Assembly (NCBI GenBank): GCA_944378225.1
Contig: CALWGE010000003.1
Coordinates: 5,455-69,454, forward strand
From: an uncultured Merdimonas sp.
GTDB lineage: Bacteria > Bacillota > Clostridia > Lachnospirales > Lachnospiraceae
Reading direction: 5' to 3'
DNA length: 64,000 nucleotides
The notes below the pieces were generated by a model. The model was not told the origin of the DNA. It saw nothing but the letters and a program-made list of their open reading frames with translations, and ran no database searches. Numbering within the stretch: position 1 is the first letter of the stretch; every line of letters begins with the position of its first letter. Both the position numbers and the translations under genes were made by a program. This document shows, one piece after another, positions 6,386-63,165 of this stretch.

Positions 6386-6424
6386 TGTGCCGGACCGGAA
6401 ATGGACAGGGAAGGAGAAAAGGTG

Positions 6425-8212: not shown

Positions 8213-9918
8213 GAGAGAATATGAAAATGAAAAAGCTGTCGGCATTTGCTCTGTTTTTTCTTTTTTTGATAATTATTTTTTCTGTGCTCCCAGTAACTTA
8301 TGCCATTAATGATGACGTGGCCATGAGAGATATTGCATCAGGAGCTATGTCAGGACAGCCAGATTATCATCTTGTATTTGTAAAAGCGGTTCTTGGGCTT
8401 ATACTGCAGGCTATATATCTTCGTTTCCCGGGCATGGATTGGTACGGATTATTGTGGATGAGTTTTATTGTACTATCTGCTGCTTTGGTTTTATGGAATA
8501 TTCTTGCCATTTGTGAGAGAAAAAAGAAAAATTTGTTTATAGCTGCGGTTTTATTCCTGATGATATTTACTCTGACGGCTCTCGGACATCTGGTAAGTTT
8601 TCAGTTTACGGTGGTTGCCGGAATCCTGGCTGGAACAGCAATTTTTCTATACGGAGTGGATGAAAGCAAAGGGAAAAAAGAGTATCTGACAGCAGCATTG
8701 ATTATTTTTCTGATTTGGGCATCTTTTTGCGTCAGAGAAAATGTTCTCATGATGGCTGTCCCTTTTGGCGGTTTGATGATTCTGTATAAAACCGGAAGTG
8801 TAAAAAAGAAAGTGCTGATGGCTTTTATTGTGGTCATTGGTCTGGCAGGCATTATGCTGTTTGAACACATAGCATATTCCGGAGAAGAGTGGGAGACTTA
8901 TCGGTATTATAATTCAGCTCGTTCTGTGGTATATGATTATTATGGGGTGCCGCCGTATGAAGAGAATAAAGAGTTTTATAACAGTATCGGGTTCGAGGAA
9001 TATGATGTAGCAAATTTGGAGCGCTATCAGCTGGTTTTTGTGGATGAACTGGAAAATGGGAAAATGCAGCAGGTGGCGGAATATGCAAAACAGCAGTATA
9101 ATAAACAGAATACTTTGATTACCCGAATTAAATCCGGAATTAAGACAGCGATATTGGGAGAATGTGAAAAAGAAAATATTATTTTGAATCTTTTAGCCAA
9201 GCTATTGATTTTGTTTAATATGATATGGGGGATTCGACATAACAAAAAAAATTTTTTTATAATCAATGCAGGGTTTTTAGTATGTGAAGGAATACTGGTG
9301 CTTTATCTTGGATATGAAGGAAGACTGCCGGCCAGAGTGATGGCGGCATTGCTTCTGATAGAGTTTCTGTCGGCTTTGTCGGTCTGGTTTTCGAATCAAA
9401 GTGAGAGAGTGAAAACTGCAGAAGATAGAAAAGGGTACAGATGGAAAACGGCTTTTCTGTTCATAGCGTTATTGATTCTGTCCGGTTGTAAAATATCTGA
9501 GATATATGATTCTCAGACACAAAGATACAGAAGTAATCAAGAATACGAGCTTTTACAATCCTTTTATGTGAGTAACCCGGAAAACGTATATTATATTCCT
9601 GTTAATTGGACAGCGGCATATTCAAGTAATTTTTATATCAGGAAAGATGCCCAGGTTATTAATGGATTTAATCTGGGAGGCTGGACAAAACATCTTCCGG
9701 TTTATGAGAAAGGGTTGGAGAGATTCGGTATAGAGAATGAAGATACAGCTATTGTTGAAAATGAGAACGTATATTTGATTCTGAGTGCACCGTCCAGTAA
9801 AATCACGCCGCATTATGAAGAAAAGTATAAAGAAGTTCAATGGACACAGGTTGATACAGCTCCAGTCTACGGAATGGAGGTCCCTGTCTTTAAAATAACG
9901 GGAGGAGATAGAAAATGA
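8209..9918 (+). CDS. Polytopic membrane protein, paralog 3 of the triplicated family (AT-rich copy)
   Basis: 569 aa. Motifs 'INDDVAMRDIASGAMSGQPDYHLVFVK', 'MDWYG', 'FQFTVVAGILAG', 'RENVLMM' and 'EWETYRYYNSARSVVYDYYGVPPYE'. Start overlaps the upstream stop and the stop overlaps the wecE start. Visibly lower GC than paralogs 1 and 2. Confidence 0.6.
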   Translation: MRENMKMKKLSAFALFFLFLIIIFSVLPVTYAINDDVAMRDIASGAMSGQPDYHLVFVKAVLGLILQAIYLRFPGMDWYGLLWMSFIVLSAALVLWNILAICERKKKNLFIAAVLFLMIFTLTALGHLVSFQFTVVAGILAGTAIFLYGVDESKGKKEYLTAALIIFLIWASFCVRENVLMMAVPFGGLMILYKTGSVKKKVLMAFIVVIGLAGIMLFEHIAYSGEEWETYRYYNSARSVVYDYYGVPPYEENKEFYNSIGFEEYDVANLERYQLVFVDELENGKMQQVAEYAKQQYNKQNTLITRIKSGIKTAILGECEKENIILNLLAKLLILFNMIWGIRHNKKNFFIINAGFLVCEGILVLYLGYEGRLPARVMAALLLIEFLSALSVWFSNQSERVKTAEDRKGYRWKTAFLFIALLILSGCKISEIYDSQTQRYRSNQEYELLQSFYVSNPENVYYIPVNWTAAYSSNFYIRKDAQVINGFNLGGWTKHLPVYEKGLERFGIENEDTAIVENENVYLILSAPSSKITPHYEEKYKEVQWTQVDTAPVYGMEVPVFKITGGDRK

Positions 9919-11042
9919 TACCATTTAATGTGCCACCTTGTGTGGGAACAGAGTTACAGTATATCAAAGAGGCGATTGAGTCGCATAAAATATGCGGAGA
10001 CGGTGTTTTCACCAAAAAATGCAATGCGTGGCTGGAGGAGAGATTTCATGCGCAGAAAGTGCTCCTGACCACCAGTGGGACAACAGCTCTTGATATGGCA
10101 GCGTTGCTGTGTGAACTGCAGGAGGGAGACGAAGTAATTCTGCCAAGCTATACCTTTTCCAGTACAGCAACATCTGCAGTTCTGGGAGGAGCAAAGCTTG
10201 TATTTGTGGATATCCGTCCGGATACCATGAATATTGATGAAACAAAGATCGAAGAGGCCATTACAGAGAGGACGAAGGTTCTTATCGTTATGCATTATGC
10301 AGGAGTGGCCTGCAACATGGATGCAGTGATGGAGATTGCGCAAAGGCATAAACTGGTCGTGATAGAGGACGCTGCGCAGGGAGTCATGAGTACTTATAAA
10401 GGACGTGCGCTGGGAACCATTGGAGATTTCGGCTGCTATTCTTTTCACGAAACGAAAAACTACTCCATGGGAGAAGGCGGGGCGCTCGTCATCAATAATC
10501 CCAAATATAATGAGCGTGCGGAAATTTTGCGGGAAAAAGGAACTAATCGTTCAAAATTTTTCCGTGGTCAGGTAGATAAGTATACGTGGGTGGATTTTGG
10601 AGACAGTTACCTTCCCAGTGAACTGAATGCCGCTTATCTGTGGGCACAGCTTTGTGCTGCAGATGAGATTAATGATAATCGCATGGCGAGCTGGAATCAT
10701 TATTATCGTGAGCTGAAGGAGCTGGAAGATGAAGGGAAAATAGAACTGCCTGTCATTCCGAACGGTTGTGTACACAATGCGCATATGTTCTATATGAAAT
10801 GCAAGGATCTGGAGGAGAGAACGGCTCTTATTTCTTATTTGAAGAACAATGATATTTTGGCAGTATTCCATTATATTCCGCTTCATTCAGCTCCAGCGGG
10901 ATTGAAATATGGACGTTTTGTCGGAGAGGATATTTATACGACTATAGAAAGTGAACGTCTGGTACGGTTACCGCTGTATTACGGACTGGAATCGGAACAG
11001 GTAGATTTTGTTTGTGAGAAAATCAAGAATTTTTATGAATAA
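9915..11042 (+). CDS. wecE: dTDP-4-amino-4,6-dideoxy-D-galactose (Fuc4N) transaminase, DegT/WecE family
   Basis: 375 aa. Long blocks typical of WecE/RffA: 'SFHETKNYSMGEGGAL', 'REKGTNRSKFFRGQVDKYTWVD', 'AAYLWAQL', 'NAHMFYMK' and 'AVFHYIPLHSAPAG'. Confidence 0.85.
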   Translation: MIPFNVPPCVGTELQYIKEAIESHKICGDGVFTKKCNAWLEERFHAQKVLLTTSGTTALDMAALLCELQEGDEVILPSYTFSSTATSAVLGGAKLVFVDIRPDTMNIDETKIEEAITERTKVLIVMHYAGVACNMDAVMEIAQRHKLVVIEDAAQGVMSTYKGRALGTIGDFGCYSFHETKNYSMGEGGALVINNPKYNERAEILREKGTNRSKFFRGQVDKYTWVDFGDSYLPSELNAAYLWAQLCAADEINDNRMASWNHYYRELKELEDEGKIELPVIPNGCVHNAHMFYMKCKDLEERTALISYLKNNDILAVFHYIPLHSAPAGLKYGRFVGEDIYTTIESERLVRLPLYYGLESEQVDFVCEKIKNFYE

Positions 11043-11081: not shown

Positions 11082-11807
11082 ATGAATATTGTAGATGCAT
11101 TCTGGGAAAAAAGGAATCTGGGCGTGGATGTGACGGAGATTCAATGTGAACTGACAGATCGGAAAGAAGATTTGAAGAAAGCACTTTCTGTGATTAAGAC
11201 GCCTTATTCTGTGTGCAAGATTCCCGGAGGAGCCGTGGAACTGCTTTTATGTGCGCAGGAACAGGGATATCAGGTGATAGAAATGAGTATTGGCCTGGAA
11301 GGGAAAGTAAAAGAACTGGCGCTTCCCACGATTTATAAACGGTTTGCTTCAGAAATTTCCATACGGGATGCTGAGCAGGATCAGATAGAGAAAGTATTGC
11401 GGGAAATAGAATCCGGAGACATTTTCAGTACAGATCGCATTGCACTGGATCCTCAGTTTGGGAAAAGAACAGCAGGAAAGAGATATGCGAACTGGACGCG
11501 GGACTTATTGCAGCAGGGAGCACGTCTGTGTATTGGCTATTATAAGGATAATCCGGTTGCTTTTGGAGTTAATAAAGATAAAGAAAGAGGTGTGTCAGAT
11601 GCTGTATTGGGAGGTGCCTTGGCCAGCGGAGCTGGAGTCGGACTAGGGTTCCTTTCCATATATGCAAATCTGGTATCGGGGATACAGCATGGAAATACAA
11701 AAATGAAAACACATGTTTCTTCAAATAATCCGCCTATTATCCATTTGCATCGTCAGTTTGGCTTTCATATCAGTGAGATGCAGTATGTATTAGTAAAACA
11801 TCAATAA
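11082..11807 (+). CDS. WecD-like dTDP-4-amino-4,6-dideoxyhexose N-acyltransferase (GNAT-type), tentative
   Basis: 241 aa directly after wecE. The layout resembles WecD/RffC as I recall it: an N-terminal 'FWEKRNLGVDV' block, a middle 'ELLLCAQEQGYQVIEMSIGLEG', and 'DRIALDPQFGKRTAGKRYANWTRDLL'. Assignment is by position plus a remembered pattern only. Confidence 0.5.
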   Translation: MNIVDAFWEKRNLGVDVTEIQCELTDRKEDLKKALSVIKTPYSVCKIPGGAVELLLCAQEQGYQVIEMSIGLEGKVKELALPTIYKRFASEISIRDAEQDQIEKVLREIESGDIFSTDRIALDPQFGKRTAGKRYANWTRDLLQQGARLCIGYYKDNPVAFGVNKDKERGVSDAVLGGALASGAGVGLGFLSIYANLVSGIQHGNTKMKTHVSSNNPPIIHLHRQFGFHISEMQYVLVKHQ

Positions 11808-11833: not shown

Positions 11834-11862
11834 TTGACACTAAATAAAAATATAGGTAAAAT
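11834..11862 (+). promoter_or_regulatory. Sigma-A-type promoter (TTGACA-N17-TAAAAT) in front of the SDR-transketolase-ACP-ligase-LuxE-LuxC cassette
   Basis: TTGACA at 11834-11839, a 17-nt spacer, then TAAAAT at 11857-11862. Lies in the 106-nt AT-rich gap ~50 nt upstream of the GAAGGAGG RBS of the SDR gene. Confidence 0.55.
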
Positions 11863-11913
11863 CATACTGAGTCTGAAAGAAGTGTATTTATAGCGTTATT
11901 GAAGGAGGAAAAT

Positions 11914-12657
11914 ATGCTTACGAATAAAAACATAGTGGTTACAGGAGCAAATAGAGGAATTGGTAAAATGATTCTCCAGAAATGCGCTGAAAATCATGCT
12001 AATATCTGGGCATTGACGAGACATATTGATGATGAGATGCTTGGATTTTGGAAAACGCTAGAGAGCCAATATCATGTCTGGATTACTCCGGTAAAGATAG
12101 ATATGCAGAATGAAGATAGTGTAATAAGCAGTGCCAAAGAAATTTTAACAAGAAAAGAAGCTATTTGGGGAATTGTAAATAATGCGGGAATTACCGGAGA
12201 AAATCGATTGTTTGCTATGACTTCACAGGATGAACTTAGGAAAGTGTTTCAGACAAATTTCTTTTCTCCTATGTTGTTAACACAGAAACTGCTTAGAAAT
12301 ATGATTAAAAACAGAAAGGGCAGTATTGTAAATATATCTTCAGTGGCAGCTTTAGATGGAGAACCTGCTCAGTTTGCTTATGTGACAAGTAAGGCGTCTT
12401 TAGTAGGTGCCACAAAGAAACTCTCAAGCGAGCTTGCGGCAATAGGAATTCGTGTAAATGCAGTTGCTCCGGGAATGACAAATACCGGAATGATTGAACA
12501 GATGCAGGAAGAACTGAAGCAGAAGAGCCTGGAAAATATTCCCATGAAAAGACTTGCGAGACCGGAAGAAATCGCGGATACAGTAGTATTCTTGCTGTCA
12601 GAAAAAAGCAGTTTTATCACAGGTCAGGTCATCAGGGTAGATGGAGGAAAAATATGA
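11914..12657 (+). CDS. Short-chain dehydrogenase/reductase (FabG-like)
   Basis: ATG 11914 sits 6 nt after GAAGGAGG; the ORF track begins at TTG 11899. Motifs 'VVTGANRGIGK', 'NNAG', 'SS..A...........Y..SKA' and 'ITGQVIRVDGG'. Confidence 0.85.
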   Translation: MLTNKNIVVTGANRGIGKMILQKCAENHANIWALTRHIDDEMLGFWKTLESQYHVWITPVKIDMQNEDSVISSAKEILTRKEAIWGIVNNAGITGENRLFAMTSQDELRKVFQTNFFSPMLLTQKLLRNMIKNRKGSIVNISSVAALDGEPAQFAYVTSKASLVGATKKLSSELAAIGIRVNAVAPGMTNTGMIEQMQEELKQKSLENIPMKRLARPEEIADTVVFLLSEKSSFITGQVIRVDGGKI

Positions 12658-13463
12658 ATACAGAATTAATTGCGTGTATGAAAAAGGCTGCCGGAAATAT
12701 GCGCAGGAATATGCTGGAAATGACACTGCATGCAGGAGCCAACGGAGCTCATATAGGCGGTGCTTTGTCTGCAGCGGATCTTATGGCTGTGCTTTATTGC
12801 GGTATTATGGACAGAAAAGGCAAAGGCGATCATTTTGTTCTGAGCAAAGGACACTGTGCTTTGGTTCAGTATGCGGCGTTGTGTGAGACAGGAGCCATTT
12901 CGAAAGAGGAATTAATGACCTTTGAGGATAACGGGGGAATTTTTCCGGCTCATCCAGTGATGAATGACGCCATTGGAATTGAATTATCGAGCGGCAGCCT
13001 GGGTCTGGGTCTGGGATTTGGCATTGGCCTGGCACTGGCGGATAAGAAGAAACATACGGAAGCGAGAACGTACGTTCTGTTGGGAAATGGCGAGTGCAAT
13101 GAAGGAAGTATATGGGAAGCAGTCATGCAGGCTCCTAAATTGAAACTGGATAATCTGATAGGAATTCTGGATAATAATCATTTGCAGCTGGATGGTGCAC
13201 CAGAATCTATCGTTCCGCAATCTAATATTGCAGAAAATTTTCGTTCTTTTGGCTGGGAAGTTATCGAGATTGACGGACATGACATCAGGACTATTTATGA
13301 GACACTTTCACATTTGGAACAGGATGGCAGGCCCAAAATGATTGTGGCGGATACCATAAAAGGAAAAGGAGTTTCTTTTATGGAAAATCAGGTAAGATAT
13401 CATCATGCAGGTCTGACACAGGAGCAGTTTGAGCAGGCAATGGAGGAATTGAATAATGACTAA
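12654..13463 (+). CDS. Transketolase, N-terminal (ThDP/PP-binding) subunit
   Basis: 269 aa. Motifs 'GAHIGGALSAADL', 'DHFVLSKGH', 'GSLGLGLGFGIGLA' and 'GNGECNEGSIWEA'. ATG overlaps the SDR stop. Confidence 0.85.
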   Translation: MNTELIACMKKAAGNMRRNMLEMTLHAGANGAHIGGALSAADLMAVLYCGIMDRKGKGDHFVLSKGHCALVQYAALCETGAISKEELMTFEDNGGIFPAHPVMNDAIGIELSSGSLGLGLGFGIGLALADKKKHTEARTYVLLGNGECNEGSIWEAVMQAPKLKLDNLIGILDNNHLQLDGAPESIVPQSNIAENFRSFGWEVIEIDGHDIRTIYETLSHLEQDGRPKMIVADTIKGKGVSFMENQVRYHHAGLTQEQFEQAMEELNND

Positions 13464-14433
13464 TATTTCTAATGAAAACGTTGCTCTCTGGTCGAGAATA
13501 AGTTCAAGAAAAACTTTTGGTCTGGTTTTGGATGAACTAGCCTATGAACATCCGGAACTGATGGTACTTGTGGCCGATGTGGCGGATTCTGCTGGTCTGG
13601 GAGATTTTGAGAAACATCATCCGGAGCAATTTCTTAATGTAGGTATTGCGGAGCAGAATATGATTGCCATAGCAGCCGGACTGGCAAAATCAGGATATAA
13701 AGTGTTCGCGGTTTCCTTTGCGCCGTTTGCGTCCATGCGTTGTTTTGAAGTTCTTCGTACGTATCTGGGATATATGAATCTGGACGTCACAGTTGTGGGG
13801 ATTGCCAGTGGCCTGAGTATGGGGACAGGCGGAAATACTCATTACGGTCTGGAAGATCTGGCCCTTCCGAGAACGATTCCCAATATGACAGTCGTATCCC
13901 CGGCAGACTGCACGGAGACAGTGAAAGCAACAGAGGCGCTGCTGGAGCATAAAGGACCTGCGTACCTGCGACTGACCGGTGTAAACGGTAATCAGCCTGT
14001 ATATAAAGAAGATTATGATTTCCGGCTTGGCAAGGCAGCAAAAGTCAGAGAAGGCACGGACGTGGCGATTATCGCCACAGGCACTATGGTATACGAGTCG
14101 CTTCGCGCTACCAGAAAGCTGCAGAAAGAAGGAATTTCCTGCGCCATTCTGGATATGAGTACCGTGAAACCTCTGGATGAAGAGGCTTTGGAAGAAGCGT
14201 TTGATTCTTATAGGCTGGTTGTGACAGTAGAAGAACATACGCTTATTGGCGGTCTGGGTTCCGCGGCGGCAGAATATAAAGCACGGTATGGTAAGAAAAC
14301 AAAACTGGAAATGATAGGTCTGCCGGACAGCTTTGAAAAGGCAGGGACTTACGCATGGATGCTGGATAATCAGCGGCTGTCTGCAAGACATCTCGCGGAC
14401 AGGATTCTGGAAGTATATAAAACATTAGGTTAA
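13456..14433 (+). CDS. Transketolase, C-terminal (Pyr-binding) subunit
   Basis: 325 aa. Motifs 'FLNVGIAEQNMIAIAAGLA', 'FAPFASMRCFE', 'HYGLEDLALPRTIPNMTVVSPAD' and 'VTVEEHTLIGGLGS'. Overlaps the N-subunit by 8 nt. Confidence 0.85.
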   Translation: MTNISNENVALWSRISSRKTFGLVLDELAYEHPELMVLVADVADSAGLGDFEKHHPEQFLNVGIAEQNMIAIAAGLAKSGYKVFAVSFAPFASMRCFEVLRTYLGYMNLDVTVVGIASGLSMGTGGNTHYGLEDLALPRTIPNMTVVSPADCTETVKATEALLEHKGPAYLRLTGVNGNQPVYKEDYDFRLGKAAKVREGTDVAIIATGTMVYESLRATRKLQKEGISCAILDMSTVKPLDEEALEEAFDSYRLVVTVEEHTLIGGLGSAAAEYKARYGKKTKLEMIGLPDSFEKAGTYAWMLDNQRLSARHLADRILEVYKTLG

Positions 14434-14453
14434 CATTTAGGAGGGAAAATAAC

Positions 14454-14693
14454 ATGACAAACAAGGAAAAATATGTGAACGCGTTTACAGAGACTTTTGA
14501 CATTACAGAGGAAGAGACAAAGGGCCTTCAGTATTCCGGAATCTCCGCATGGGATTCTGTAGGACATATGTCCCTCGTGGCGGCTCTGGAAGATGCTTTT
14601 GATATTATGATGGACACGGATGATATTATTGATTTCAGCTCTTTTGAAAAGGGAATGGAAATACTGAGTGAGAAATATGATGTGGAATTTTAA
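14454..14693 (+). CDS. Acyl/peptidyl carrier protein (DltC-sized, 79 aa)
   Basis: A 'WDSVGHMSLVAALEDAF' phosphopantetheine-site-like DS motif in a 79-aa acidic protein, placed immediately before an adenylating ligase. Confidence 0.7.
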   Translation: MTNKEKYVNAFTETFDITEEETKGLQYSGISAWDSVGHMSLVAALEDAFDIMMDTDDIIDFSSFEKGMEILSEKYDVEF

Positions 14694-16089
14694 TAAATTT
14701 TCAGAAAATACTGCGCTGCAGTCCGATGACGGAACGCAGCTGACTTACAGAGAATTAGAGGAAGAGACAGGGCGGCTTGCGACAGCTATTGGAGAACGCT
14801 GCCTTGTTTTTTCCATGTGCAGCAATACGATAGGTTCTGTAATCGGTTACACAGCTTTCATACAGCACAGGATTGTTCCGGTTCTTCTGAATGCCCATCT
14901 GGATCCGGAACTACTTTCCGGTCTTCTTAAAACTTACTGCCCGGCATACCTGTGGATGCCGGATTTTATGACGGAGAAATATTCTGACTGGCAGAAGATA
15001 TATACAAGCAAAGGATACACATTGCTGAAAACAGATTATGAAAAAGTTTATCCGCTATATGAGGAACTGGGGCTTCTTTTGACTACCTCTGGTTCTACAG
15101 GCAGTCCCAAATTTGTAAGACAAAGTTATAAGAATATAGAAGCGAATACCAGGCAGATAGCGGAATATCTGGAACTGAATCAGGAGGAAAGACCCATTAC
15201 CACCCTTCCTATGAATTATACCTATGGTCTTTCCATCATCAACAGCCACCTTCTGGTGGGCGCCCGGATTCTTCTTACTGACAAAACCATGATGGAGAGG
15301 GGGTTCTGGTCATTTATGAAAGAACAGAAAGCAACCTCCTTTGGCGGAGTACCTTATACCTATGAGATGTTGGACAAACTACGGTTTTTCCGAATGGATC
15401 TTCCGGATTTGAAGACGATGACGCAGGCCGGCGGCAAACTGATTCCGGAGCTTCATAAGAAATTCGCGGAGTATGCGGCGGAAAAGGGAAAGAATTTTGT
15501 GGTGATGTACGGTCAGTGCGAGGCTACCGCCCGTATGGGATATCTTCCTGCAAAAAAAGCTGTGGAAAAATGTGGCTCCATGGGTATTGCAATTCCGGGG
15601 GGAATTTTCCATCTGATAGATGTAAATGGGGAAACAATTACAGAGCCACATGTGACCGGAGAGCTTGTGTACGAGGGAGAAAATGTGACCCTTGGATATG
15701 CTGAGTGCGGAGAAGACCTGATAAAAGGGGACGAAAGAAAGGGCATTCTCCAGACAGGCGATATGGCGCAGTTTGACGAGGACGGTTATTATTACATTGT
15801 AGGACGAAGAAAGCGATTTCTGAAAATATATGGAAACCGTGTGAACCTGGATGAAGTAGACCGGATGATTAAAGGAAAATTTGAAAATCTGGAATGCGCA
15901 AGTACCGGAGTGGACGATCATATGTATCTCTTTGTGACAGATGAAGCCTGCGCGGATCAGGTGAAAGAATTTGTGGTTGCGAAGACGGGGCTGAATCAGG
16001 CGGCGTTTCAGGTGATTGTGATAGACAGTATCCCGAAAAATGATTCCGGGAAAACACTTTACAGGGAACTGGAAAAGTATTACAAATAG
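14668..16089 (+). CDS. AMP-dependent (adenylate-forming) ligase, carrier-protein loading enzyme candidate
   Basis: 473 aa. AMP-binding signature 'LLTTSGSTGSPKFV', then 'YGQCEAT', 'TGDMAQFDEDGYYYIVGRRKRFLKIYGNRV' and a C-terminal 'GK'. The start is ambiguous (14668/14677/14680) and overlaps the end of the carrier gene. Confidence 0.8.
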   Translation: MRNMMWNFNKFSENTALQSDDGTQLTYRELEEETGRLATAIGERCLVFSMCSNTIGSVIGYTAFIQHRIVPVLLNAHLDPELLSGLLKTYCPAYLWMPDFMTEKYSDWQKIYTSKGYTLLKTDYEKVYPLYEELGLLLTTSGSTGSPKFVRQSYKNIEANTRQIAEYLELNQEERPITTLPMNYTYGLSIINSHLLVGARILLTDKTMMERGFWSFMKEQKATSFGGVPYTYEMLDKLRFFRMDLPDLKTMTQAGGKLIPELHKKFAEYAAEKGKNFVVMYGQCEATARMGYLPAKKAVEKCGSMGIAIPGGIFHLIDVNGETITEPHVTGELVYEGENVTLGYAECGEDLIKGDERKGILQTGDMAQFDEDGYYYIVGRRKRFLKIYGNRVNLDEVDRMIKGKFENLECASTGVDDHMYLFVTDEACADQVKEFVVAKTGLNQAAFQVIVIDSIPKNDSGKTLYRELEKYYK

Positions 16090-16127
16090 TCAGTTATGTC
16101 TATGTATGGGAAATAAGGGAGCGAAAC

Positions 16128-17219
16128 ATGAATTTTGAGGAAATGCTTCAGAGAACCCCCTATTCTTTTTCGAAAGAGGAAAAAGAAGCGGTGTTAACGG
16201 AGAGACTATCAGAACTTACTGAAAAGCACAGGGTATCCTGCCCTCCGTATGGAAATATATTGAGAAGCGCCGGATATGAGCGGGGAAGAATCGGCAGTTA
16301 TAAGGAACTGCCGTTCCTTCCTGTCCGTCTGTTTAAAGAACTGGAGCTGAAGAGCGTTCCGGATGACCAGATTGTAAAAACCATGACATCTTCCGGGACA
16401 ACTGGACAGGCGGTTTCAAAAATCTATCTGGATCGCGTTACATCTGCAAATCAACAGAAGGTAATGGTGAAGATAGTCTCCGATTTTACCGGAAGCAGCA
16501 GGATGCCTATGATTATACTGGATTGTCCTTCTGTGGTGAAAAACCGTCTGATGTTTTCAGCCAGAGGAGCGGGAATTCTGGGATTCTCCATTTTCGGGGC
16601 AAAAAGAATATACGCTCTGGATGACGATATGAAGCTGAATGTGGAAGGACTGAAGGCATTTCTGGATAAATACCGGGGGCAGAGAATTTTCCTGTTCGGC
16701 TTTACCTTTATGATCTGGCAGCATTTTTACAAGGAACTTGTCCGGCTGAAACAGGAAGGCATCACATTTGACCTGTCTGACGGTGTCCTGATTCATGGAG
16801 GCGGCTGGAAAAAACTTATCAGTGAAGCGGTAAGCCCGGAAGAATTTAAACGCTGTCTTACAGATGTCTGCGGTCTGAGCCATGTACATGATTATTATGG
16901 TATGGTGGAGCAGACAGGATGTATTTATATGGAATGTGAGTGCGGTCATCTGCATGCCAGTATTTTTTCCGATGTGATCATGAGGCGTCCTCTGGACTTT
17001 TCGGAATGTGAAGTTGGAGAAAAAGGAATCATTCAGGTGGTTTCCACTTTGCCCGAATCCTATCCCGGACATTCGCTGCTTACAGAGGATGAAGGAATTG
17101 TGCTGGGAGAGGATGACTGTCCCTGCGGCAGAAAAGGGAAATATTTCAAGGTGATCGGCAGGCTGAAAAATGCGGAGATACGGGGGTGCAGCGATACCTA
17201 TGCAGAAAAGTTTAGATAG
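16128..17219 (+). CDS. LuxE-like acyl-protein synthetase
   Basis: 363 aa. 'MTSSGTTGQAVSKIYLD' nucleotide-binding motif and a Cys in 'IRGCSDTYAEKFR' 11 residues from the C-terminus, the position of the acylated Cys in LuxE. Paired with a LuxC-like gene. Confidence 0.6.
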   Translation: MNFEEMLQRTPYSFSKEEKEAVLTERLSELTEKHRVSCPPYGNILRSAGYERGRIGSYKELPFLPVRLFKELELKSVPDDQIVKTMTSSGTTGQAVSKIYLDRVTSANQQKVMVKIVSDFTGSSRMPMIILDCPSVVKNRLMFSARGAGILGFSIFGAKRIYALDDDMKLNVEGLKAFLDKYRGQRIFLFGFTFMIWQHFYKELVRLKQEGITFDLSDGVLIHGGGWKKLISEAVSPEEFKRCLTDVCGLSHVHDYYGMVEQTGCIYMECECGHLHASIFSDVIMRRPLDFSECEVGEKGIIQVVSTLPESYPGHSLLTEDEGIVLGEDDCPCGRKGKYFKVIGRLKNAEIRGCSDTYAEKFR

Positions 17220-18414
17220 AGAACAGTTACAGGGAATACAGTATCTGGTGGGCAGTGAAGAAATCCTCGCGCGGCTGCCGCAGGCAAAAGCCAGAGAACC
17301 TTTTGATGAAAAAATACAGGAATTTTTAAATGCTCTTTCCAGAGCGCTGCTTTCCATGCCAGAGGCAAAATTTTATCCGGATGTTGTGACATTCGCGTTC
17401 TGGATTCGCAAATCCTCCTTAAAAAAACTGGCAGAACGTTTTGCGTCCGGGAACAGTCTGATTCAGCTGGGAAGGGGAACAGCCTTTCACATTGCCCCTT
17501 CCAATGTGGCAGTAAATTATGCATACTCCTTTGCGGCAGGTTTTATGACTGGAAACGCAAATGTGGTGCGCGTTCCGTCAAAGGATTTCCCGCAGATCGC
17601 CGTGATCAACAGGGCGGTCAATGCGGTTCTTGAGCAGTATCCGGATCAGAAGCCTTATATTTGCTTTGTGCGCTATGGGAGAGAACAGCGGATTAACGAC
17701 GTCCTTTCTGCAATCGCAGATGTCAGAATTGTCTGGGGCGGAGATAGGACCATTGCGGAGTTGAGAAAATCACCGTTAGGTCCCAGGGCATCGGAAATTA
17801 CCTTTGCAGATCGGTATTCTCTGGCCGTGATTGACAGCGATATCTATATGGCTGCGGAGAATCCGGGACGAATTGCGGATGATTTCTATAACGATACGTA
17901 CCTGACCGATCAGAATGCATGTACCAGTCCCAGAATCGTTGTATGGTATGGATCGCGGATTAGCGAGGCGAAGGAGCGTTTCTGGTCTCTTCTCCTGGAA
18001 AAGGTGCAGAAAAAATACGAATTTCAGCCAATTCAGGGAGTAAACAAACTGACAAATGTCTATCTGGCTTCAGCAGGTCACGAAGGGCTTCACGCCATTT
18101 ACTGTGGAGACAATCGTCTGGTTCGGGTCTCTCTGGAGCGTCTTTTTGAAGACCTGATGGACTTTCGGGGAGATTCCGGCTATTTTTATGAATACGACTG
18201 TCAGGATCTTCTGCAACTGCAAAACATTTGCGACGATACCCGTTGTCAGACGGTCTCCTATATCGGAGACCCCAGTATGTTCCTGCCGCTTGTAAAATCC
18301 GGCATTGCCGGAATAGATCGGATTGTTCCCATAGGCAAAACCATGGATTTTGATATGATCTGGGATGGGTATAACCTGTATGAGAGACTGACCAGGACGA
18401 TAAGCCTTATATAA
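17170..18414 (+). CDS. LuxC-like acyl-CoA/acyl-protein reductase (aldehyde-forming)
   Basis: 414 aa (404 aa if the start is ATG 17200). ALDH-superfamily-like with the candidate catalytic Cys in 'YLTDQNACTSPRIVVW'. Overlaps the LuxE-like stop by 20-50 nt. Confidence 0.6.
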   Translation: MRRYGGAAIPMQKSLDREQLQGIQYLVGSEEILARLPQAKAREPFDEKIQEFLNALSRALLSMPEAKFYPDVVTFAFWIRKSSLKKLAERFASGNSLIQLGRGTAFHIAPSNVAVNYAYSFAAGFMTGNANVVRVPSKDFPQIAVINRAVNAVLEQYPDQKPYICFVRYGREQRINDVLSAIADVRIVWGGDRTIAELRKSPLGPRASEITFADRYSLAVIDSDIYMAAENPGRIADDFYNDTYLTDQNACTSPRIVVWYGSRISEAKERFWSLLLEKVQKKYEFQPIQGVNKLTNVYLASAGHEGLHAIYCGDNRLVRVSLERLFEDLMDFRGDSGYFYEYDCQDLLQLQNICDDTRCQTVSYIGDPSMFLPLVKSGIAGIDRIVPIGKTMDFDMIWDGYNLYERLTRTISLI

Positions 18415-18444: not shown

Positions 18445-19140
18445 ATGAAACTGAAAAAATGCAGGCAGGATTTTACGTGATCTGGATTCTGATTCCCCTT
18501 TTATGGGTTTTATGTATTCTGTTTTGTAATGGGTATAAATTTGAATTATCGATTCTGATGCCTGTCTGGAACGATGAAATTGAATGGCATAAATTACAAT
18601 AGGCTATTCTATGACGTCTATGTCGGAAGGATTATGGTATGAGCTGGCGATTATACTGACGGGCAGTCTGATATGGATGGAACGTCATACAGAAAAACAG
18701 ATAAGTATTCAGGAAAGGAACTATGTGCCTATATAATTCTTGCATTTCTTCTCTTGTATGTAATTCAGGTTTATTCGATTCGACGATTACAACTATCTTT
18801 AGACAAATTGCCGAAAATGGATTCTATCATGGATTTTGTTTTTTTTCTGTAAAACTTTTTCGAAATCTGCGGACTGTAGATTTATTTTCCATATTCTTTG
18901 CAGCAACGGACACTTATGGTAAACTATCTGGTTATATTTTTTCTCCTCTTGTTTGATGTTGTTAAGAACAGGGAGCACCTTATGAACAACAGGAGTTATT
19001 ATCACGAAGCGGCATATTTTATGACAGGTTTTCTGATTGGCTACTGTACTCTCTATACAGGACAGGAATTGACGCCGGGCAGGGGAATTGAGAAAGAAAA
19101 AAGAATTCTTCAGGAGGGTTTTGGCTGAATAGGGATGCAG
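18445..19140 (+). pseudogene. AT-rich spacer carrying only short broken ORFs that encode hydrophobic peptides; likely decayed membrane-protein gene(s)
   Basis: No ORF longer than 80 aa with an RBS. Consecutive + strand fragments in different frames include 'VIWILIPLLWVLCILFCNGYKFELSILMPVWNDEIEWHKLQ*', 'MTSMSEGLWYELAIILTGSLIWMERH..*', '..LFSIFFAATDTYGKLSGYIFSPLV*' and '..NYLVIFFLLLFDVVKN..YFMTGFLIGYCTLYTGQ..*'. This is the only large non-coding gap in the window. Confidence 0.35.
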
Positions 19141-19368
19141 AACGGCGGCAGAGTCCTGTAGCCACATAGGGCAATGTAGATTTCAGATATCTTGTTTTGC
19201 CGGTGGGCTATGGCTCAAATTATATGGTAGATATTCAAATCGGTGAAACAGCAGGTTATGCAGTGATAAACTAGGGAGAGGAATATACAGAAAATCTCAC
19301 AGATGGCGGATCTAGAGTTCTTCTGGAAGATGAGTGGTTTGTGGTTTTACAGAATGAGAGGCGGAGTA

Positions 19369-20550
19369 ATGGTGAAGAATGAAAAGAAAAATCTGGTTAT
19401 AACAGTTTTTTTTGCCGTATTTCTGTTTGTGATTACCTATCAGGTTATCATGGGAGCGATTAGAAATCCATACAGCGATTATCTGGGGCATGCGGAAAAC
19501 GCGGAGTTACTTCTGAATTCCGGACTTGGGGCAGTGCTACATGAAATAGGATATCCTTTATGGGCCTTACTTACTGCGGGGATCATGAAAATATCCAGAG
19601 CACCGGCTTATGAAGCTTCCGCGATTGCGGGCGGAATTCTGAATGTTCTGACCTATGCGCTGATCTACATGTATCTGATAAAAGACCATAAGGAAGAAAA
19701 ATTTTGGATTGCTGCGTTAAGCTGGCTTCTGCTTTTGGCAGGGCCGTTTTATATTCCCTGGTATAATTCAGAGATATATGCGGGGCAGGTGACGCCAAAT
19801 ATCTGGCACAATCCCACGACTATCTGTGTCCGGCCCTTTGCTTTCGTGGCTTTTCTGACGATTCTGAAACTTTTGGAAGAATATGAGGAAGAGCAGAAAA
19901 AACTTACTGTCAGGGACTGGCTTCTGCTGGCTCTTGCCCTTGTATTTTGCAATCTGGCAAAGCCCAGTTTTGTACAGATAGCTGTTCCCGGGCTGGCGGT
20001 TTATTTAATTGTTTTGCTGATTCGCACCAGAGGAAAAGCTTTTAGCTTCTGTTTTCAGACTGCGTCAGCTTTTGTGCCCTGTGTCCTCGTGATGTTATGG
20101 CAGTTGCTGGTTTCTTTTGGAACATCCAGTTCTGCGGATGGGGGAATTGAAATAGCCTGGTTTGATGTGATGGGCGCGTCATCGCCAAGTATTCCGTTTT
20201 CCATGCTGCTGAGTTATCTTTTCCCTGTTTATGTTCTCCTGACTAATATCAGAATTGTCAGGGAGCGAGACATTCAGGTGACGTTTTTTATGTGGCTTGG
20301 CGGATTCCTGGAAGCAGCCATGCTGGCGGAGACAGGCTATCGGCGTTACCATGGAAACTTTGGATGGGGATATGTGCTGGCAACCTTTCTGGTCTATGTG
20401 GTGACTTTCCGGTATTTCCTGAAGCGCAATCAGGAATACGATTATGAAAATGTAAAAGATAGAATTCTTGTTATGGGGGGCTGGGTGATTTTTTTACTGC
20501 AGTTTGCTATAGGAATTTATTATATAAGCACGTTTTTTATTCCTGTGTAA
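19369..20550 (+). CDS. Polytopic membrane protein, ArnT/GT-C-like candidate acceptor transferase
   Basis: The ORF track starts at 19303, but ATG 19369 follows GAGAGGCGGAG. About 393 aa, very hydrophobic, with a first-loop motif 'NPYSDYLGHAENAE'. Sits directly upstream of the ArnC-like, ArnE/F-like and GtrA genes. Confidence 0.55.
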   Translation: MVKNEKKNLVITVFFAVFLFVITYQVIMGAIRNPYSDYLGHAENAELLLNSGLGAVLHEIGYPLWALLTAGIMKISRAPAYEASAIAGGILNVLTYALIYMYLIKDHKEEKFWIAALSWLLLLAGPFYIPWYNSEIYAGQVTPNIWHNPTTICVRPFAFVAFLTILKLLEEYEEEQKKLTVRDWLLLALALVFCNLAKPSFVQIAVPGLAVYLIVLLIRTRGKAFSFCFQTASAFVPCVLVMLWQLLVSFGTSSSADGGIEIAWFDVMGASSPSIPFSMLLSYLFPVYVLLTNIRIVRERDIQVTFFMWLGGFLEAAMLAETGYRRYHGNFGWGYVLATFLVYVVTFRYFLKRNQEYDYENVKDRILVMGGWVIFLLQFAIGIYYISTFFIPV

Positions 20551-20574: not shown

Positions 20575-21516
20575 ATGGACATATCGTTTGTGATACCATG
20601 TTATGGTTCGGAACATACCATAGAGAAGGTTGTGACTGAACTGAGGAATACTATGGCCGGAAGGCCTGAATACAGCTATGAAATTATTCTGGTCAATGAT
20701 AATTCTCCGGACCAGGTCTGGGGCGTGATTCAGAAGCTGGCGAAGACGTATGATAATATAAAAGGAATCTCACTTGCCCGTAATTTTGGTCAGCATGCGG
20801 CTCTGATGGCCGGTTACAGGAACTGTAAGGGTGAGATTGTGGTTTCCCTCGATGATGACGGACAGACTCCGGCGGACGAGGCATTCCTTCTGATTGATAA
20901 AATTAAGGAAGGGTATGATGTGGTTTACGGATATTATCCGGAAATCAGGCAGTCACATTTCCGGATATTCGGCAGCTGGGTAAATGAGAAAATGATAGAA
21001 ATACTTCTGGGAAAACCGAAAAAGCTGAAGTGTACCAGCTATTATGCGGCCAGAAGATTTATTATTGAGGAGATGCTGCGGTATAAGAATTCCTATCCTT
21101 ATGTAGGCGGACTGGTACTGCGCAGTACAAAAAATATTGGAAATGTTCCTGTACACCATCGTGCAAGAATGGAGGGAAATTCCGGATATTCCATGGGGAA
21201 ACTGCTGGCGTTGTGGTTTAACGGATTTACAGCCTTTTCTGTGAAACCGCTTCGTCTGGCTACTGTGGTAGGCTTTTTGTGCGCTGTTGCAGGTTTTATT
21301 TATGGTCTGATTATGGTTGTGCGCAAACTGATGGGATTTACTACGGTTCTGGGTTATAGCTCTCTGATTACAGTGATTCTGTTTATTGGTGGTATTATCA
21401 TGGTTTTGCTTGGAATTATAGGAGAGTATATCGGACGGATTTATATCAGTCTGAATAACGCTCCTCAGTATGTGATTCGGGAAACGATAGGAGGCAGTGA
21501 TGAGAAAACTGACTAA
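20575..21516 (+). CDS. Polyprenyl-phosphate glycosyltransferase (GT2, ArnC/GtrB-like)
   Basis: 313 aa. Motifs 'ISFVIPCYGSEHTI', 'ILVNDNSPD', 'RNFGQHAALMAG' and 'VSLDDDGQTP', plus two C-terminal TM helices ending 'GIIGEYIGRIYISLNNAPQYVIRE'. Confidence 0.8.
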   Translation: MDISFVIPCYGSEHTIEKVVTELRNTMAGRPEYSYEIILVNDNSPDQVWGVIQKLAKTYDNIKGISLARNFGQHAALMAGYRNCKGEIVVSLDDDGQTPADEAFLLIDKIKEGYDVVYGYYPEIRQSHFRIFGSWVNEKMIEILLGKPKKLKCTSYYAARRFIIEEMLRYKNSYPYVGGLVLRSTKNIGNVPVHHRARMEGNSGYSMGKLLALWFNGFTAFSVKPLRLATVVGFLCAVAGFIYGLIMVVRKLMGFTTVLGYSSLITVILFIGGIIMVLLGIIGEYIGRIYISLNNAPQYVIRETIGGSDEKTD

Positions 21517-21859
21517 ATCGGAAAAGAAGACATTTTTGGGATTGCAGCTCCTGCTGTTGTTTTATTCACTGGGCGGTATCTGTTCCAAAATGGCGGCCGG
21601 GCAGCCGTTCCTGTCTCCAAAATATATTTTATATTATGGAATGGTGCTTTTTATCCTTGCTGTTTACGCAATCGGGTGGCAGCAGGTAATTAAGAGGCTG
21701 CCGCTGATTACCGCATATGCGTCCAAGGCAGTTACCGTCATCTGGGGAGTTGTCTGGGGAATGCTTGTTTTTAAAGAAAAAATTACCGTGACTAATGTGG
21801 CAGGCGCCGTTGTAATTATTGCGGGAATTCTTTTGGTTGTGTCGGAAGAGGAGAAATAA
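21500..21859 (+). CDS. Small 4-TM DMT/SMR-like protein (ArnE/ArnF-like flippase subunit candidate)
   Basis: About 119 aa. ATG 21500 lies 5 nt after GGAGG. Hydrophobic, EamA-half-like ('AGAVVIIAGILLV'). Immediately followed by a second protein of the same kind. Confidence 0.65.
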   Translation: MRKLTKSEKKTFLGLQLLLLFYSLGGICSKMAAGQPFLSPKYILYYGMVLFILAVYAIGWQQVIKRLPLITAYASKAVTVIWGVVWGMLVFKEKITVTNVAGAVVIIAGILLVVSEEEK

Positions 21860-21860
21860 C

Positions 21861-22190
21861 ATGGGAATTGTAATCTTTCTGGGCTCTGTGCTGGTGGCTT
21901 CGATTTCCCAGATTATGCTGAAAAAGAGTGCTGATCGAAAATACGACAGATGGATAGATGAGTATCTGAATTTCAGAGTGATTTTTGCCTATGGACTGTT
22001 CTTTTTATCCAGTCTGATGACCGTTTACGCCTATAAATTTGTTCCGCTTTCTTTAGGACCCGTACTTGAGGCCAGTGGATATATTTTTGTTTCTGTTATG
22101 GGATATTTAATTCTGAAAGAGAAGATTGGAAGAAAAAAATTGCTGGGACTTATTGTGATCATAGCAGGAATTATACTTTTTAATGTGTAA
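21861..22190 (+). CDS. Small 4-TM DMT/SMR-like protein (second ArnE/ArnF-like subunit candidate)
   Basis: About 109 aa from ATG 21861, behind GGAAGAGGAG (the ORF track starts at TTG 21819). Contains 'LGLIVIIAGIILFNV'. Confidence 0.65.
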   Translation: MGIVIFLGSVLVASISQIMLKKSADRKYDRWIDEYLNFRVIFAYGLFFLSSLMTVYAYKFVPLSLGPVLEASGYIFVSVMGYLILKEKIGRKKLLGLIVIIAGIILFNV

Positions 22191-22234: not shown

Positions 22235-22663
22235 ATGAAAAAACTATTCGCGCAGATCATCAAATTCGGAGCCGTAGGGTTCCTGTGTTTCTTTATCGAT
22301 TATGCCATCATGGTAGGCCTGACAGAATTTGCAGGAATTCCATCCTTAGTATCCAGCGGCTGTTCCTATACCATTTCTACGGTTGTAAACTATATTCTGA
22401 GTGTCACTGTCGTGTTTGACGCGGATAAAGAAGCAAACAAGATGGTACAGTTTGTTGTGTTTGTGGTTCTGAGTCTCATTGGACTCGGTATTAATCAGCT
22501 CTGCATGTGGGGCGGCACGGCATGGCTGGAGCAGCTGATGGAGCAGAGCAGGCTTCTGGCAGGCTATTCACGTTATGCTTACATGGTAGTAAAAATCTTT
22601 GCGACTGCAGTGGTAATGGTATATAATTTCATTACAAGAAAGATTTTTATCGAGAAACACTGA
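22235..22663 (+). CDS. GtrA-family membrane protein (lipid-linked sugar translocation)
   Basis: 142 aa. 'IKFGAVGFLCFFIDYAIMVGL' and a C-terminal 'VMVYNFITRKIFI' are typical of the GtrA/GtcA family. Confidence 0.8.
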   Translation: MKKLFAQIIKFGAVGFLCFFIDYAIMVGLTEFAGIPSLVSSGCSYTISTVVNYILSVTVVFDADKEANKMVQFVVFVVLSLIGLGINQLCMWGGTAWLEQLMEQSRLLAGYSRYAYMVVKIFATAVVMVYNFITRKIFIEKH

Positions 22664-25917: not shown

Positions 25918-25974
25918 AAAGAGCAGGAACAGGGGAAACCAGACAGGTTTCCTGCGCCGGAAGGGAGAGAGAGC

Positions 25975-26670: not shown

Positions 26671-26758
26671 ATCGGAAAGCCGGGAGCTGAAATGTGGAAT
26701 AACCACTGTAGAAAATACAGTGTATATTCATAGAGAGAAATGGGAGGAACAATGAATA

Positions 26759-63139: not shown

Positions 63140-63165
63140 AATTATAACTAAATGATACCGGCAGA

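Follow-up and report, generated by a model that had tools for sequence, protein, structure and literature searches.

A transketolase-bearing LuxE/LuxC cassette in a Lachnospiraceae cell-wall glycan locus and its possible role in amino-sugar acylation

In a 64,000-nucleotide stretch of contig CALWGE010000003.1 from an uncultured Merdimonas sp. (hereafter the window), a block of seven genes encodes a FabG-like short-chain dehydrogenase/reductase (SDR), the two subunits of a split transketolase, a 79-aa carrier protein, an AMP-forming ligase, and proteins of the LuxE and LuxC families. An earlier note, made from the letters of this stretch, had described the block as a cassette embedded in a glycan locus; all seven genes are present where it placed them, and its domain assignments hold (Table 1). 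Here, we describe the cassette and its relatives and argue that its likely product is an N-acyl (or O-acyl) group with which an amino sugar is decorated.

A seven-gene cassette in a cell-wall glycan locus

The genes of the window, which comes from a Lachnospiraceae-type Clostridium, form an array on one strand. Among the best 80 LuxC loci in our survey, the closest genomes are those of Lachnoclostridium sp. An138 and An131 and a Merdimonas metagenome-assembled genome (MAG), whose LuxC proteins are 80–81% identical to that of the window. The cell-wall glycan locus occupies positions 1–32.5 kb, and the remainder of the window is housekeeping. Upstream of the cassette, this locus holds several family 2 glycosyltransferases (GT2), a DUF6020 protein, three large unannotated membrane proteins, WecE, and a 241-aa protein; downstream lie an ArnC-like GT2, two small EamA proteins, a GtrA protein, two CotH proteins, and VTC/DUF4956 genes, followed by more GT2 enzymes, an initiating sugar transferase, and an LCP ligase. 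Within the cassette, neighbouring genes overlap or are separated by no more than 38 nt, and the same order is found again in other genomes, so it is not a chance arrangement. The start of the SDR gene has been corrected to the ATG at 11914, which lies behind an AAGGAGG (the mechanical open reading frame (ORF) begins at TTG 11899); the ligase probably starts at 14677, and LuxC may start at a conserved Met at 17200 (M11, invariant in A1).

Table 1. Coordinates of the cassette, its promoter, and neighbouring features in the window
Feature	Position	Strand	Evidence
WecE, 4-aminotransferase	9915..11042	+	NF008687 634 bits, TIGR02379 630 bits, PF01041 E 1.8e-84
WecD-fold two-domain GNAT, 241 aa (predicted)	11082..11807	+	profile match 2fs5; AF2/Foldseek
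Probable sigma-70-type promoter TTGACA-N17-TAAAAT	11834..11862	+	11/12 matches; conserved in L004, L002, L003
FabG-like SDR, transketolase-linked subgroup	11914..12657	+	adh_short_C2 E 1.4e-54
Split transketolase, ThDP-binding (PP) subunit (TKN)	12654..13463	+	PF00456 E 8e-37
Split transketolase, Pyr + C subunit (TKC)	13456..14433	+	PF02779 E 2.4e-34; PF02780 E 1.9e-29
79-aa acyl carrier protein (by modelled fold)	14454..14693	+	WDSVGHM, AF2 four-helix model, Foldseek
Stand-alone AMP-forming ligase, DltA-like size	14677 (or GTG 14668)..16089	+	PF00501 E 1.2e-38
LuxE-family acyl-protein synthetase	16128..17219	+	PF04443 E 3.6e-52
LuxC-family acyl-thioester reductase, aldehyde-forming	17170 (or Met at 17200)..18414	+	PF05893 E 2.8e-24
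Frame-broken membrane-protein gene remnant	18447..19379	+	tblastn fragments in several frames
ArnC/PgfS-like GT2	20575..21516	+	best NCBIfam match ArnC, E 3.3e-52, below cut-off
Pair of small EamA/SMR-like (ArnE/ArnF-like) membrane proteins	21497..22190	+	PF00892; weak ArnE/ArnF matches
GtrA-family membrane protein	22235..22663	+	PF04138 E 1.1e-20

The 106-bp gap between the stop of the 241-aa protein gene (11807) and the SDR start contains TTGACA (11834–11839), a 17-nt spacer, and TAAAAT (11857–11862), the near-consensus promoter to which the earlier note had drawn attention. Pattern matching alone does not make this site significant, as there are 33 promoter-like sites between 8 and 23 kb and 30.9 ± 5.6 in shuffled sequences; its support comes from conservation in three related genomes. 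Specifically, L004, L002, and L003 (loci from other genomes are given by such numbers) retain the two hexamers with their 17-nt spacing, as well as the CATACTGAGT that lies downstream, amid a spacer and flanks that have diverged, and the boxes persist even where the downstream SDR allele has been replaced. On the strength of this footprint, we accept the site as a probable promoter. More distant relatives have no gap at this position. A scan for terminator-like sites between the upstream genes and the cassette found none, and read-through from WecE into the cassette is possible.

At the other end of the cassette, the ‘spacer’ of about 890 bp located 3′ of LuxC is the remnant of a gene for a 529-aa multi-pass membrane protein that is intact in the three closest genomes (L002–L004, of which L002 and L003 come from Lachnoclostridium sp. 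An138/An131). Its last fragment overlaps the annotated start of the following ORF, whose true start is probably 19369.

Signatures of the cassette proteins

Of the protein families that the earlier note had named for the cassette, PF04443, PF05893, and the transketolase domains are all matched, but PP-binding is not: the 79-aa carrier has no Pfam match, and its NCBIfam match to an acyl carrier protein (ACP) is weak (E 0.003, 17.7 bits versus 66). Fold comparison resolves the identity of this protein. Its AlphaFold2 (AF2) model (pLDDT 87) has four helices, the top Foldseek matches are all ACPs (TM 0.70–0.79), and a WDSVGHM motif, the Ser of which (Ser35) begins helix 2, is invariant in 68 of 68 sequences; in addition, its homologs carry the name ACP at NCBI and JGI. 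By its modelled fold, the 79-aa protein is an ACP. The AMP-forming ligase gene lies directly 3′ of the ACP gene in most related loci, as it does in the window, and we presume that the ligase loads the ACP.

The LuxE protein scores 178 bits with PF04443 (gathering threshold 24.9) and contains the adenylate-forming SSGT(T/S)G motif. It aligns with 7xc6_E (E 2.5e-16), a chain of the Photobacterium phosphoreum (P. phosphoreum) LuxC-LuxE fatty-acid reductase complex, such that the Cys of its C-terminal RGCSD coincides with that of KGCSL, and this Cys is invariant in 81 of 81 homologs. Likewise, LuxC scores 86.2 bits with PF05893 (gathering threshold 21), its DQNACTSP aligns with DQQACFST of 7xc6_A, and the catalytic Cys is invariant in 84 of 84 homologs. 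Because both Cys residues align with those of 7xc6 and are invariant, the pair should act as it does in the lux system, in which an acid and ATP give acyl-AMP, then acyl-S-LuxE, then acyl-S-LuxC, and finally an aldehyde. As judged from the alignments, the catalytic residues of all three proteins (the carrier Ser, the LuxE Cys, and the LuxC Cys) are intact. Also upheld is the earlier proposal that the cassette has the parts for activating, tethering, and reducing a carboxylate and for transferring a two-carbon ketol unit.

Bioluminescence was considered as the function of the LuxE/LuxC pair and rejected. In the window genes that were scanned, neither LuxD- nor LuxAB-type families turned up, and both proteins fall far under the equivalog cut-offs: LuxE reaches 60.5 bits with NF052244 (cut-off 550), which sets it apart from the long-chain ortholog of bioluminescence, and LuxC reaches 34.5 bits (cut-off 750).

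The transketolase distributes its PP, Pyr, and C domains over two adjacent subunits, and the best PDB matches of both are to the biochemically active split transketolase of Carboxydothermus hydrogenoformans (6yak_A for TKN, E 7e-59; 6yaj for TKC, E 2e-65). The Glu that activates thiamine diphosphate (ThDP) is kept (GIAEQNM), as are the donor-side/N-terminal His residues. The acceptor site is altered. Here, GTGGNTHY replaces GEDG(A/P)(S/T)HQ (GEDGASHQ in 6yaj), and the Asp of GEDG is absent not just from the window but from most of the 41 Clostridia members of the clade and from Rhizobium; the His equivalent to the phosphate-binding H461 of the E. coli enzyme is also lost (ASGL in the window versus THAG in 6yaj). 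In characterized transketolases, the GEDG Asp (D469 in E. coli, D477 in yeast) hydrogen-bonds the C2 hydroxyl of the acceptor, and substitutions of D469 improve the use of non-hydroxylated aldehydes. With this Asp missing, the clade looks adapted to an acceptor without an α-hydroxyl; a diacid semialdehyde, which LuxC could produce from a -CH2-COOH terminus, is one candidate that would fit. Glycolyl-ACP formation of the QncN/L/M type, also considered, is unlikely, as no lipoyl/E2-like component is present.

The SDRs found with such cassettes split into transketolase-linked and ACP-linked subgroups, and the window SDR belongs to the former (46% mean identity to transketolase-adjacent SDRs versus 37% to ACP-adjacent SDRs). 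We presume that it is the ketoreductase of the ketol product. It is the sole SDR in the window, where we found neither an iron-dependent alcohol dehydrogenase (Fe-ADH) nor a second SDR or alcohol dehydrogenase that could take the LuxC aldehyde. The window thus has a transketolase and its SDR in place of an aldehyde-reducing dehydrogenase, and this leads us to propose a C2-ketol extension of the aldehyde followed by reduction of the new ketone. The SDR allele has been swapped among close relatives, with 81% amino acid identity to the window in L004 and only 42% in L002/L003 (4736–5480); the L002/L003 gene gives no nucleotide alignment with that of the window, and both its flanks show 73–79% nucleotide identity.

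Relatives of the cassette and the amino-sugar connection

Two LuxC motifs matched 339 GTDB species genomes, and the best 80 loci were taken with 10-kb flanks. Their ORFs were clustered and the cluster representatives annotated; the counts below cover those 62 loci for which 15 kb or more of context was available. Almost all of the best 80 come from gut Clostridia, either Lachnospiraceae or Oscillospiraceae. The ACP–ligase–LuxE–LuxC core is found in essentially all 62 loci, and what accompanies it varies. A split transketolase pair is present in 31 loci, and in 25 of these TKN is directly preceded by an SDR; an acetolactate synthase (ALS)-like ThDP enzyme is present in 11, just one of which also has the transketolase; and 20 loci have neither ThDP enzyme, 19 of these with an SDR. 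NeuB, the nonulosonic acid synthase, occurs in 22 loci and follows the ALS-like enzyme (9 of 10 ALS-only loci) rather than the transketolase (only 3 of 31 transketolase-only loci). The trio of SDR and transketolase subunits is an optional add-on to the core and moves as an independent unit. That the transketolase pair and the ALS-like enzyme almost exclude one another is expected of alternative enzymes acting on the same aldehyde.

The exact window order (WecE, WecD-like, SDR, TKN, TKC, ACP, ligase, LuxE, LuxC) recurs in L002–L004 and L006, and L072, L082, and L093 have these genes arranged differently; in L093, they form the single run DegT-ligase-LuxE-LuxC-ACP-GT2-WecD-like-SDR-TKN-TKC-MBL-EamA-EamA, where MBL is a metallo-β-lactamase-fold gene. 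Outside the Bacillota, Rhizobium plasmids carry TKN-TKC-LbH-ACP-ligase (LbH, left-handed β-helix acyltransferase), then DegT-LuxE-LuxC, then an SDR, at 33–60% identity, and plasmids of Deinococcus and Ponticoccus carry ACP-SDR-ligase-LuxE-LuxC, the Deinococcus copy inside an exopolysaccharide locus. The ACP, AMP-ligase, LuxE, and LuxC genes are a portable core of polysaccharide and flagellin-glycan loci in at least four phyla. One surveyed locus, L019 (JAFYYJ010000005.1), is assigned to a Salinivirgaceae (Bacteroidota) MAG and encodes proteins 59% identical to those of Clostridia, which could reflect horizontal transfer or a binning error.

Other additions to the core bear on its substrate. 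A gene of the lactate/malate dehydrogenase (LDH/MDH) family directly follows LuxC in 24–26 loci, 24 by the count over the 62 (for example, L067 11242–12207 and L007 11270–12238), and its product contains AGR[GN]RKPGE[ST]R, with an MDH-type Arg at the Q102 specificity position. An Arg at this position is the classical determinant for oxaloacetate/malate over pyruvate/lactate; its presence points to dicarboxylic 2-oxo or 2-hydroxy acids and supports a C4 diacid. In 42 of the 80 fetched loci, a type II thioesterase gene separates the ligase from LuxE, and LuxE-LuxC fusions resembling RfbN occur in some Clostridia. Two LuxE-LuxC pairs are found in L015, L017, L032, L045, L051, L054, L057, L060, L068, L070, and L094, and in L054, L068, L070, and L094 the extra pairs adjoin extra transketolase pairs; the doubling may mean that two acyl groups are made (N5 and N7 of a nonulosonic acid, for example, could each receive one) or that the chemistry is iterative. 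L082 and L092 have larger cassettes that add two ketoacyl synthase (KAS) III genes, a FabA/ApeI-like dehydratase, a second carrier, and a metallo-β-lactamase-fold protein, which suggests longer or branched acyl products in some lineages.

These patterns also bear on whether the transketolase and SDR act on the acyl group at all. They might instead act on a sugar, either by building a two-carbon branch on dTDP-4-keto-6-deoxyglucose or by supplying a rare sugar phosphate, with the ACP, ligase, LuxE, and LuxC making a simple hydroxyacyl group as in Vibrio cholerae. A 4-keto-6-deoxy sugar nucleotide must exist as the substrate of WecE, ThDP-dependent two-carbon branching of keto-sugars is established (YerE and AviB1/B2, in yersiniose and avilamycin), and the independent movement of the SDR-transketolase trio would suit such a role. 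However, the known branching enzymes are ALS-like or resemble the E1 component of pyruvate dehydrogenase and are not transketolases, and no DegT gene lies within 10 kb in 12 of the 31 transketolase loci. The exclusion between the transketolase pair and the ALS-like enzyme, the transketolase pairs next to extra LuxE-LuxC pairs, and the absence from the window of a second SDR or alcohol dehydrogenase to turn the LuxC aldehyde into an alcohol all speak against it as well, and we regard this alternative as decidedly unlikely.

The sugar that would receive the acyl group is suggested by the genes just upstream. WecE passes its equivalog cut-off (NF008687, 634 bits versus 375) and is, by this assignment, the enzyme that makes dTDP-4-amino-4,6-dideoxygalactose (dTDP-Fuc4N), the presumed acyl acceptor. 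Neither rmlA nor rmlB was found among the window genes scanned, so the dTDP-keto-sugar must come from elsewhere in the genome. The 241-aa protein has no Pfam or NCBIfam family match. A profile of 31 homologs matches WecD (2fs5) over residues 43–236 (E 2e-4), and its AF2 model (pLDDT 94.8) has 2fs5_A as the top Foldseek match (E 3.9e-14, TM 0.74/0.79, 16% identity). The protein has WecD, of the GCN5-related N-acetyltransferase (GNAT) superfamily, as its best structural match, and we presume from the model that it is an N-acyltransferase acting on dTDP-Fuc4N. Both results bear out the link to WecE/WecD-like genes drawn in the earlier note, and so do the relatives, in which an aminotransferase and an N-acyltransferase repeatedly flank the module: a DegT aminotransferase is present in 30 loci, and an N-acyltransferase (LbH, GNAT, or WecD-like) is present in 36 and abuts a module gene in 32.

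The proximity of these genes could nonetheless join two unrelated pathways. In that case, WecE and the WecD-like protein would make ordinary dTDP-Fuc4NAc, and the cassette would serve another end: it could give the polymer an O-linked ester, alter a different sugar, or yield an aldehyde or polyol as a free metabolite. A conserved promoter of its own precedes the cassette, and the core serves different sugars elsewhere, as in the 22 loci of the NeuB type. Seven distant WecD-like homologs, which were sampled independently of LuxC, give evidence on both sides: five lie beside LuxE/LuxC cassettes (L082, L091, L092, L093, and L094), and two are in loci without a cassette (L084 and L086). The WecD-like family is thus linked to the cassette strongly but not obligatorily. 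Set against two separate pathways are those five neighbours, the N-acyltransferases that abut the module in 32 of the 62 loci, the interleaving of cassette genes with GT2, WecD-like, and EamA genes in L093, and the family scans of the 32-kb glycan locus, which revealed no other acyltransferase. We consider it unlikely that the two gene groups are unrelated, and we favour a shared role in acylating the amino sugar.

Genes downstream of the cassette suggest how the modified sugar is delivered. The best match of the first GT2 is ArnC (177.5 bits versus a cut-off of 529), and it is also PgfS-like; the EamA pair scores 27.5 and 23.2 bits with ArnE and ArnF (cut-offs 92 and 99). We presume that the GT2 is an undecaprenyl-phosphate aminosugar transferase and the EamA pair a flippase. 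An ArnC-like GT2 is co-located with the module in 12 of the 62 loci and in L093, the EamA pair adjoins GT2, WecD-like, and DegT genes in L027, L056, L086, L093, and L094, and YfhO-type GT-C enzymes accompany the set of GT2, EamA, WecD-like, and WecE-type genes in L086 and L094. As far as gene content can predict it, the recurrence of this set supports a route in which undecaprenyl phosphate carries the modified sugar to an extracytoplasmic acceptor.

Several other features of the window deserve mention. Three consecutive membrane proteins (581, 603, and 569 aa) encoded at 4640–9918 are weakly alike and have no Pfam or NCBIfam match, and the DUF6020 protein is encoded near them (1754–3667); these are candidate polymerases or GT-C-like transferases for a lipid-linked sugar. 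A block at 22685–27433 that is kept in L002–L004 contains two CotH kinase-like genes together with genes for a VTC-domain and a DUF4956 protein; it may be involved in polyphosphate or phosphorylation chemistry. Near the cassette, Rfam detected neither a riboswitch nor any other RNA element, its sole match being a glycine-GGAnGA riboswitch (RF03166) at 63158–63416 (137.9 bits). A FeoA-FeoB fusion (47892–50369) is the only long minus-strand gene identified in the window, and a chloramphenicol acetyltransferase family gene (60422–61069, PF00302 E 3e-72) is located near SecA.

A proposed route and its precedents

We cautiously favour a model in which the whole block builds and supplies the acyl donor for an amino sugar in the wall glycan. 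The presence of two adenylating enzymes, one associated with a reductase and the other with a carrier, argues for a substrate with two carboxyls. LuxE would adenylate one carboxyl of a small dicarboxylic acid, most likely malate or another C4 diacid, and hold the acyl group on its C-terminal Cys; the acyl group would then pass to the LuxC Cys, from which NAD(P)H would release it as an aldehyde. The split transketolase could move a C2 ketol from a ketose or hydroxypyruvate-type donor onto this aldehyde, and the adjacent SDR would reduce the new ketone to give a polyhydroxy C6 acid. The remaining carboxyl would be loaded onto the 79-aa ACP by the AMP-ligase, a pairing that synteny shows for a presumed substrate, and the WecD-fold transferase would place the acyl group on N4 of the dTDP-4-amino-4,6-dideoxygalactose made by WecE. 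The ArnC-like GT2 may then transfer the sugar to undecaprenyl phosphate, the ArnE/F-like pair and/or GtrA may flip it, and a membrane transferase would attach it to the wall polymer. The parts of this model differ in strength. The order in which the LuxC aldehyde is extended by the transketolase and then reduced by the SDR is tentative. About as doubtful is the use of the transketolase as a chain-extension enzyme that joins a C4 semialdehyde and a glycolaldehyde unit, so that after the SDR step a C6 polyhydroxy acyl group becomes amide-linked to Fuc4N; such a group might be, for example, a 3-deoxyhexonoyl, which would add 162.05 Da.

Several observations weigh against the model. The window transketolase has GNG (GNGECNEG...DNN) rather than the Mg-binding GDG, a feature of about a quarter of its clade, the rest having GDG. 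The window lacks the MDH-like gene and the thioesterase of many relatives, and the cassette's own conserved promoter permits its regulation apart from the sugar genes. GNAT enzymes usually take acyl-CoA, not acyl-ACP, and the WecD-like homologs in loci without a cassette mean that the transferase could simply acetylate. Among the large membrane proteins of the window, no GT-C, YfhO, or ArnT match was found, DUF6020 being the only match. Finally, we infer rather than observe the step order, the starter acid, the transketolase donor, the use of acyl-ACP by the WecD-like enzyme, and the final acceptor.

These readings have several implications. In glycan loci, LuxC and LuxE homologs routinely receive bioluminescence or fatty-acid annotations and are taken as evidence for liposugars; our analysis argues that they supply the reductive steps of a portable system making short polar N-acyl groups, the kind of substituent by which serotypes are defined, with V. 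cholerae O1 as an example. The core is common, and the additions to it (transketolase, ALS-like, MDH-like, and KAS III) suggest a combinatorial diversification of surface-glycan chemistry in gut commensals. The transketolase step, if real, would be a new biosynthetic role for its family and a natural counterpart of the engineered D469 variants that accept non-hydroxylated aldehydes; it would account for the tktAB islands of Dickeya and Rhizobium as well as for roughly half of the glycan loci with LuxC in gut Clostridia, with the ALS-like enzyme as an alternative carboligase in nonulosonic acid loci. The model also yields testable predictions of mass for the flagellin and wall glycans of culturable organisms, including Dickeya zeae, Rhizobium, and Lachnoclostridium sp. 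An131/An138.

The earlier note knew of no characterised pathway with this gene set; this needs qualification, as comparable sets have been described in V. cholerae O1, in Aeromonas and enterobacteria, and in D. zeae. In V. cholerae O1, an ACP, a ligase, LuxE/LuxC, and a dehydrogenase make up the long-proposed route to N-(3-deoxy-L-glycero-tetronyl)-perosamine, which rests on genetic evidence (Morona 1995, as cited in PMC4772473 and PMC12208996); wbeL genetics are given in PMC3441752. As proposed, RfbN (LuxE/LuxC) and an alcohol dehydrogenase form 2,4-dihydroxybutyrate, which RfbL/WbeL loads onto the carrier RfbK for N-acylation of perosamine. Morona et al. are reported to have named, in 1995, malate as the starter and RfbO as the transferase, and RfbO is of the LbH type rather than WecD-fold.

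Compared by gene families, rfb/wbeKLMNO and the window share the carrier, the AMP-ligase (WbeL 471 aa; 470–473 aa in the window), LuxE and LuxC (fused in RfbN), and a dehydrogenase, and in V. cholerae the route ends in a short hydroxyacyl group that an amide bond joins to a 4-amino-4,6-dideoxyhexose. The window follows the same logic in that ACP, ligase, LuxE, and LuxC stand beside a 4-aminotransferase and a putative N-acyltransferase, and this logic also applies to the 62 loci. The V. cholerae system differs in using GDP-perosamine (dTDP-Fuc4N in the window) and an iron-dependent alcohol dehydrogenase instead of an SDR, in having no transketolase, and in serving a Gram-negative O-antigen; its dedicated alcohol dehydrogenase, whether an RfbM-type Fe-ADH or an ACP-linked SDR, has no counterpart in the window. 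By this analogy, the V. cholerae O1 module is the closest functional precedent of the cassette.

A five-gene core of the same gene families has been described in flagellin glycosylation islands of Aeromonas and enterobacteria (PMC7874193, PMC4875605), and the island of D. zeae has the full set, including tktA/tktB next to vioA (PMC7575072), described but not characterised. The literature we found on glycan-locus LuxE/LuxC modules or on the transketolase add-on consists of genomic descriptions, with no biochemical characterisation. Dickeya shares with the window the split transketolase and a 4-aminotransferase but has two fabG genes, whereas the window has only the transketolase-linked SDR type; moreover, these islands serve Proteobacterial flagellin and have been read as encoding fatty-acid or liposugar synthesis, whereas the cassette of the window lies in a wall-polysaccharide locus with an LCP ligase and an Arn-like lipid-carrier route.

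The liposugar proposal, suggested by the authors of PMC4875605 and PMC7874193, credits the module with activating a fatty acid and converting it by reduction into the aldehyde or alcohol, which would place a lipid chain on the glycan. It draws on the homology of LuxE/LuxC to the fatty-acid reductase of bioluminescence, on the FabG-like SDR, and on the KAS III and FabA/Z genes added in some related loci. For the window, it conflicts with the low equivalog scores of both Lux proteins, with the MDH-type Arg of the module-linked dehydrogenase, and with the C4 hydroxy acid that is the product in the V. cholerae precedent; a transketolase also has no obvious role on a fatty chain. The window has no KAS, dehydratase, or enoyl-reductase genes to build such a chain, which counts against a liposugar and led us to reject de novo fatty-acid synthesis. 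In addition, a pseudaminic acid (Pse) derivative of Aeromonas piscicola, whose island has the five-gene core, has a mass of 376.14 Da, merely 60 Da above Pse5Ac7Ac; by our own arithmetic, replacing one acetyl of Pse5Ac7Ac with C4H6O3 gives 316.13 - 42.01 + 102.03 = 376.15 Da. We therefore consider a liposugar very improbable here and retain the short polar acyl group as the expected product.

Two further systems share individual enzymes with the cassette. LuxCDE of luminous bacteria (7xc6) contains the same two families, and both key residues (the Cys that is acylated in LuxE and the catalytic one in LuxC) are conserved, but the window pair has no LuxD, LuxA, or LuxB, is coupled to an ACP, a ligase, and sugar genes, and is predicted to use a small polar diacid, not myristate. 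The split transketolase of C. hydrogenoformans (6yak/6yaj) has the same two-subunit architecture, ThDP-activating Glu, and His residues; it differs by its GDG (GNG in the window) and by the acceptor Asp and H461-equivalent His that the window has lost, and the window enzyme sits in a glycan-tailoring operon rather than in central metabolism.

The Arn (L-Ara4N) pathway and extracytoplasmic glycosylation of the CsbB/GtcA/YfhO type share with the window a DegT aminotransferase, an N-acyl step, an ArnC-like GT2, an EamA/SMR pair, and GtrA. The window differs in that all of its matches fall below the equivalog cut-offs, it has no recognisable ArnT or YfhO and no deformylase-type step, and the polymer to be modified is presumably that of a Gram-positive wall. 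For D. zeae, the set of seven genes has been drawn but never explained, and our finding is not unprecedented in that respect. As read from its sequence, the window cassette is a transketolase-bearing, V. cholerae-like module in a new setting, that of a Gram-positive wall glycan with an Arn-like lipid-carrier route.

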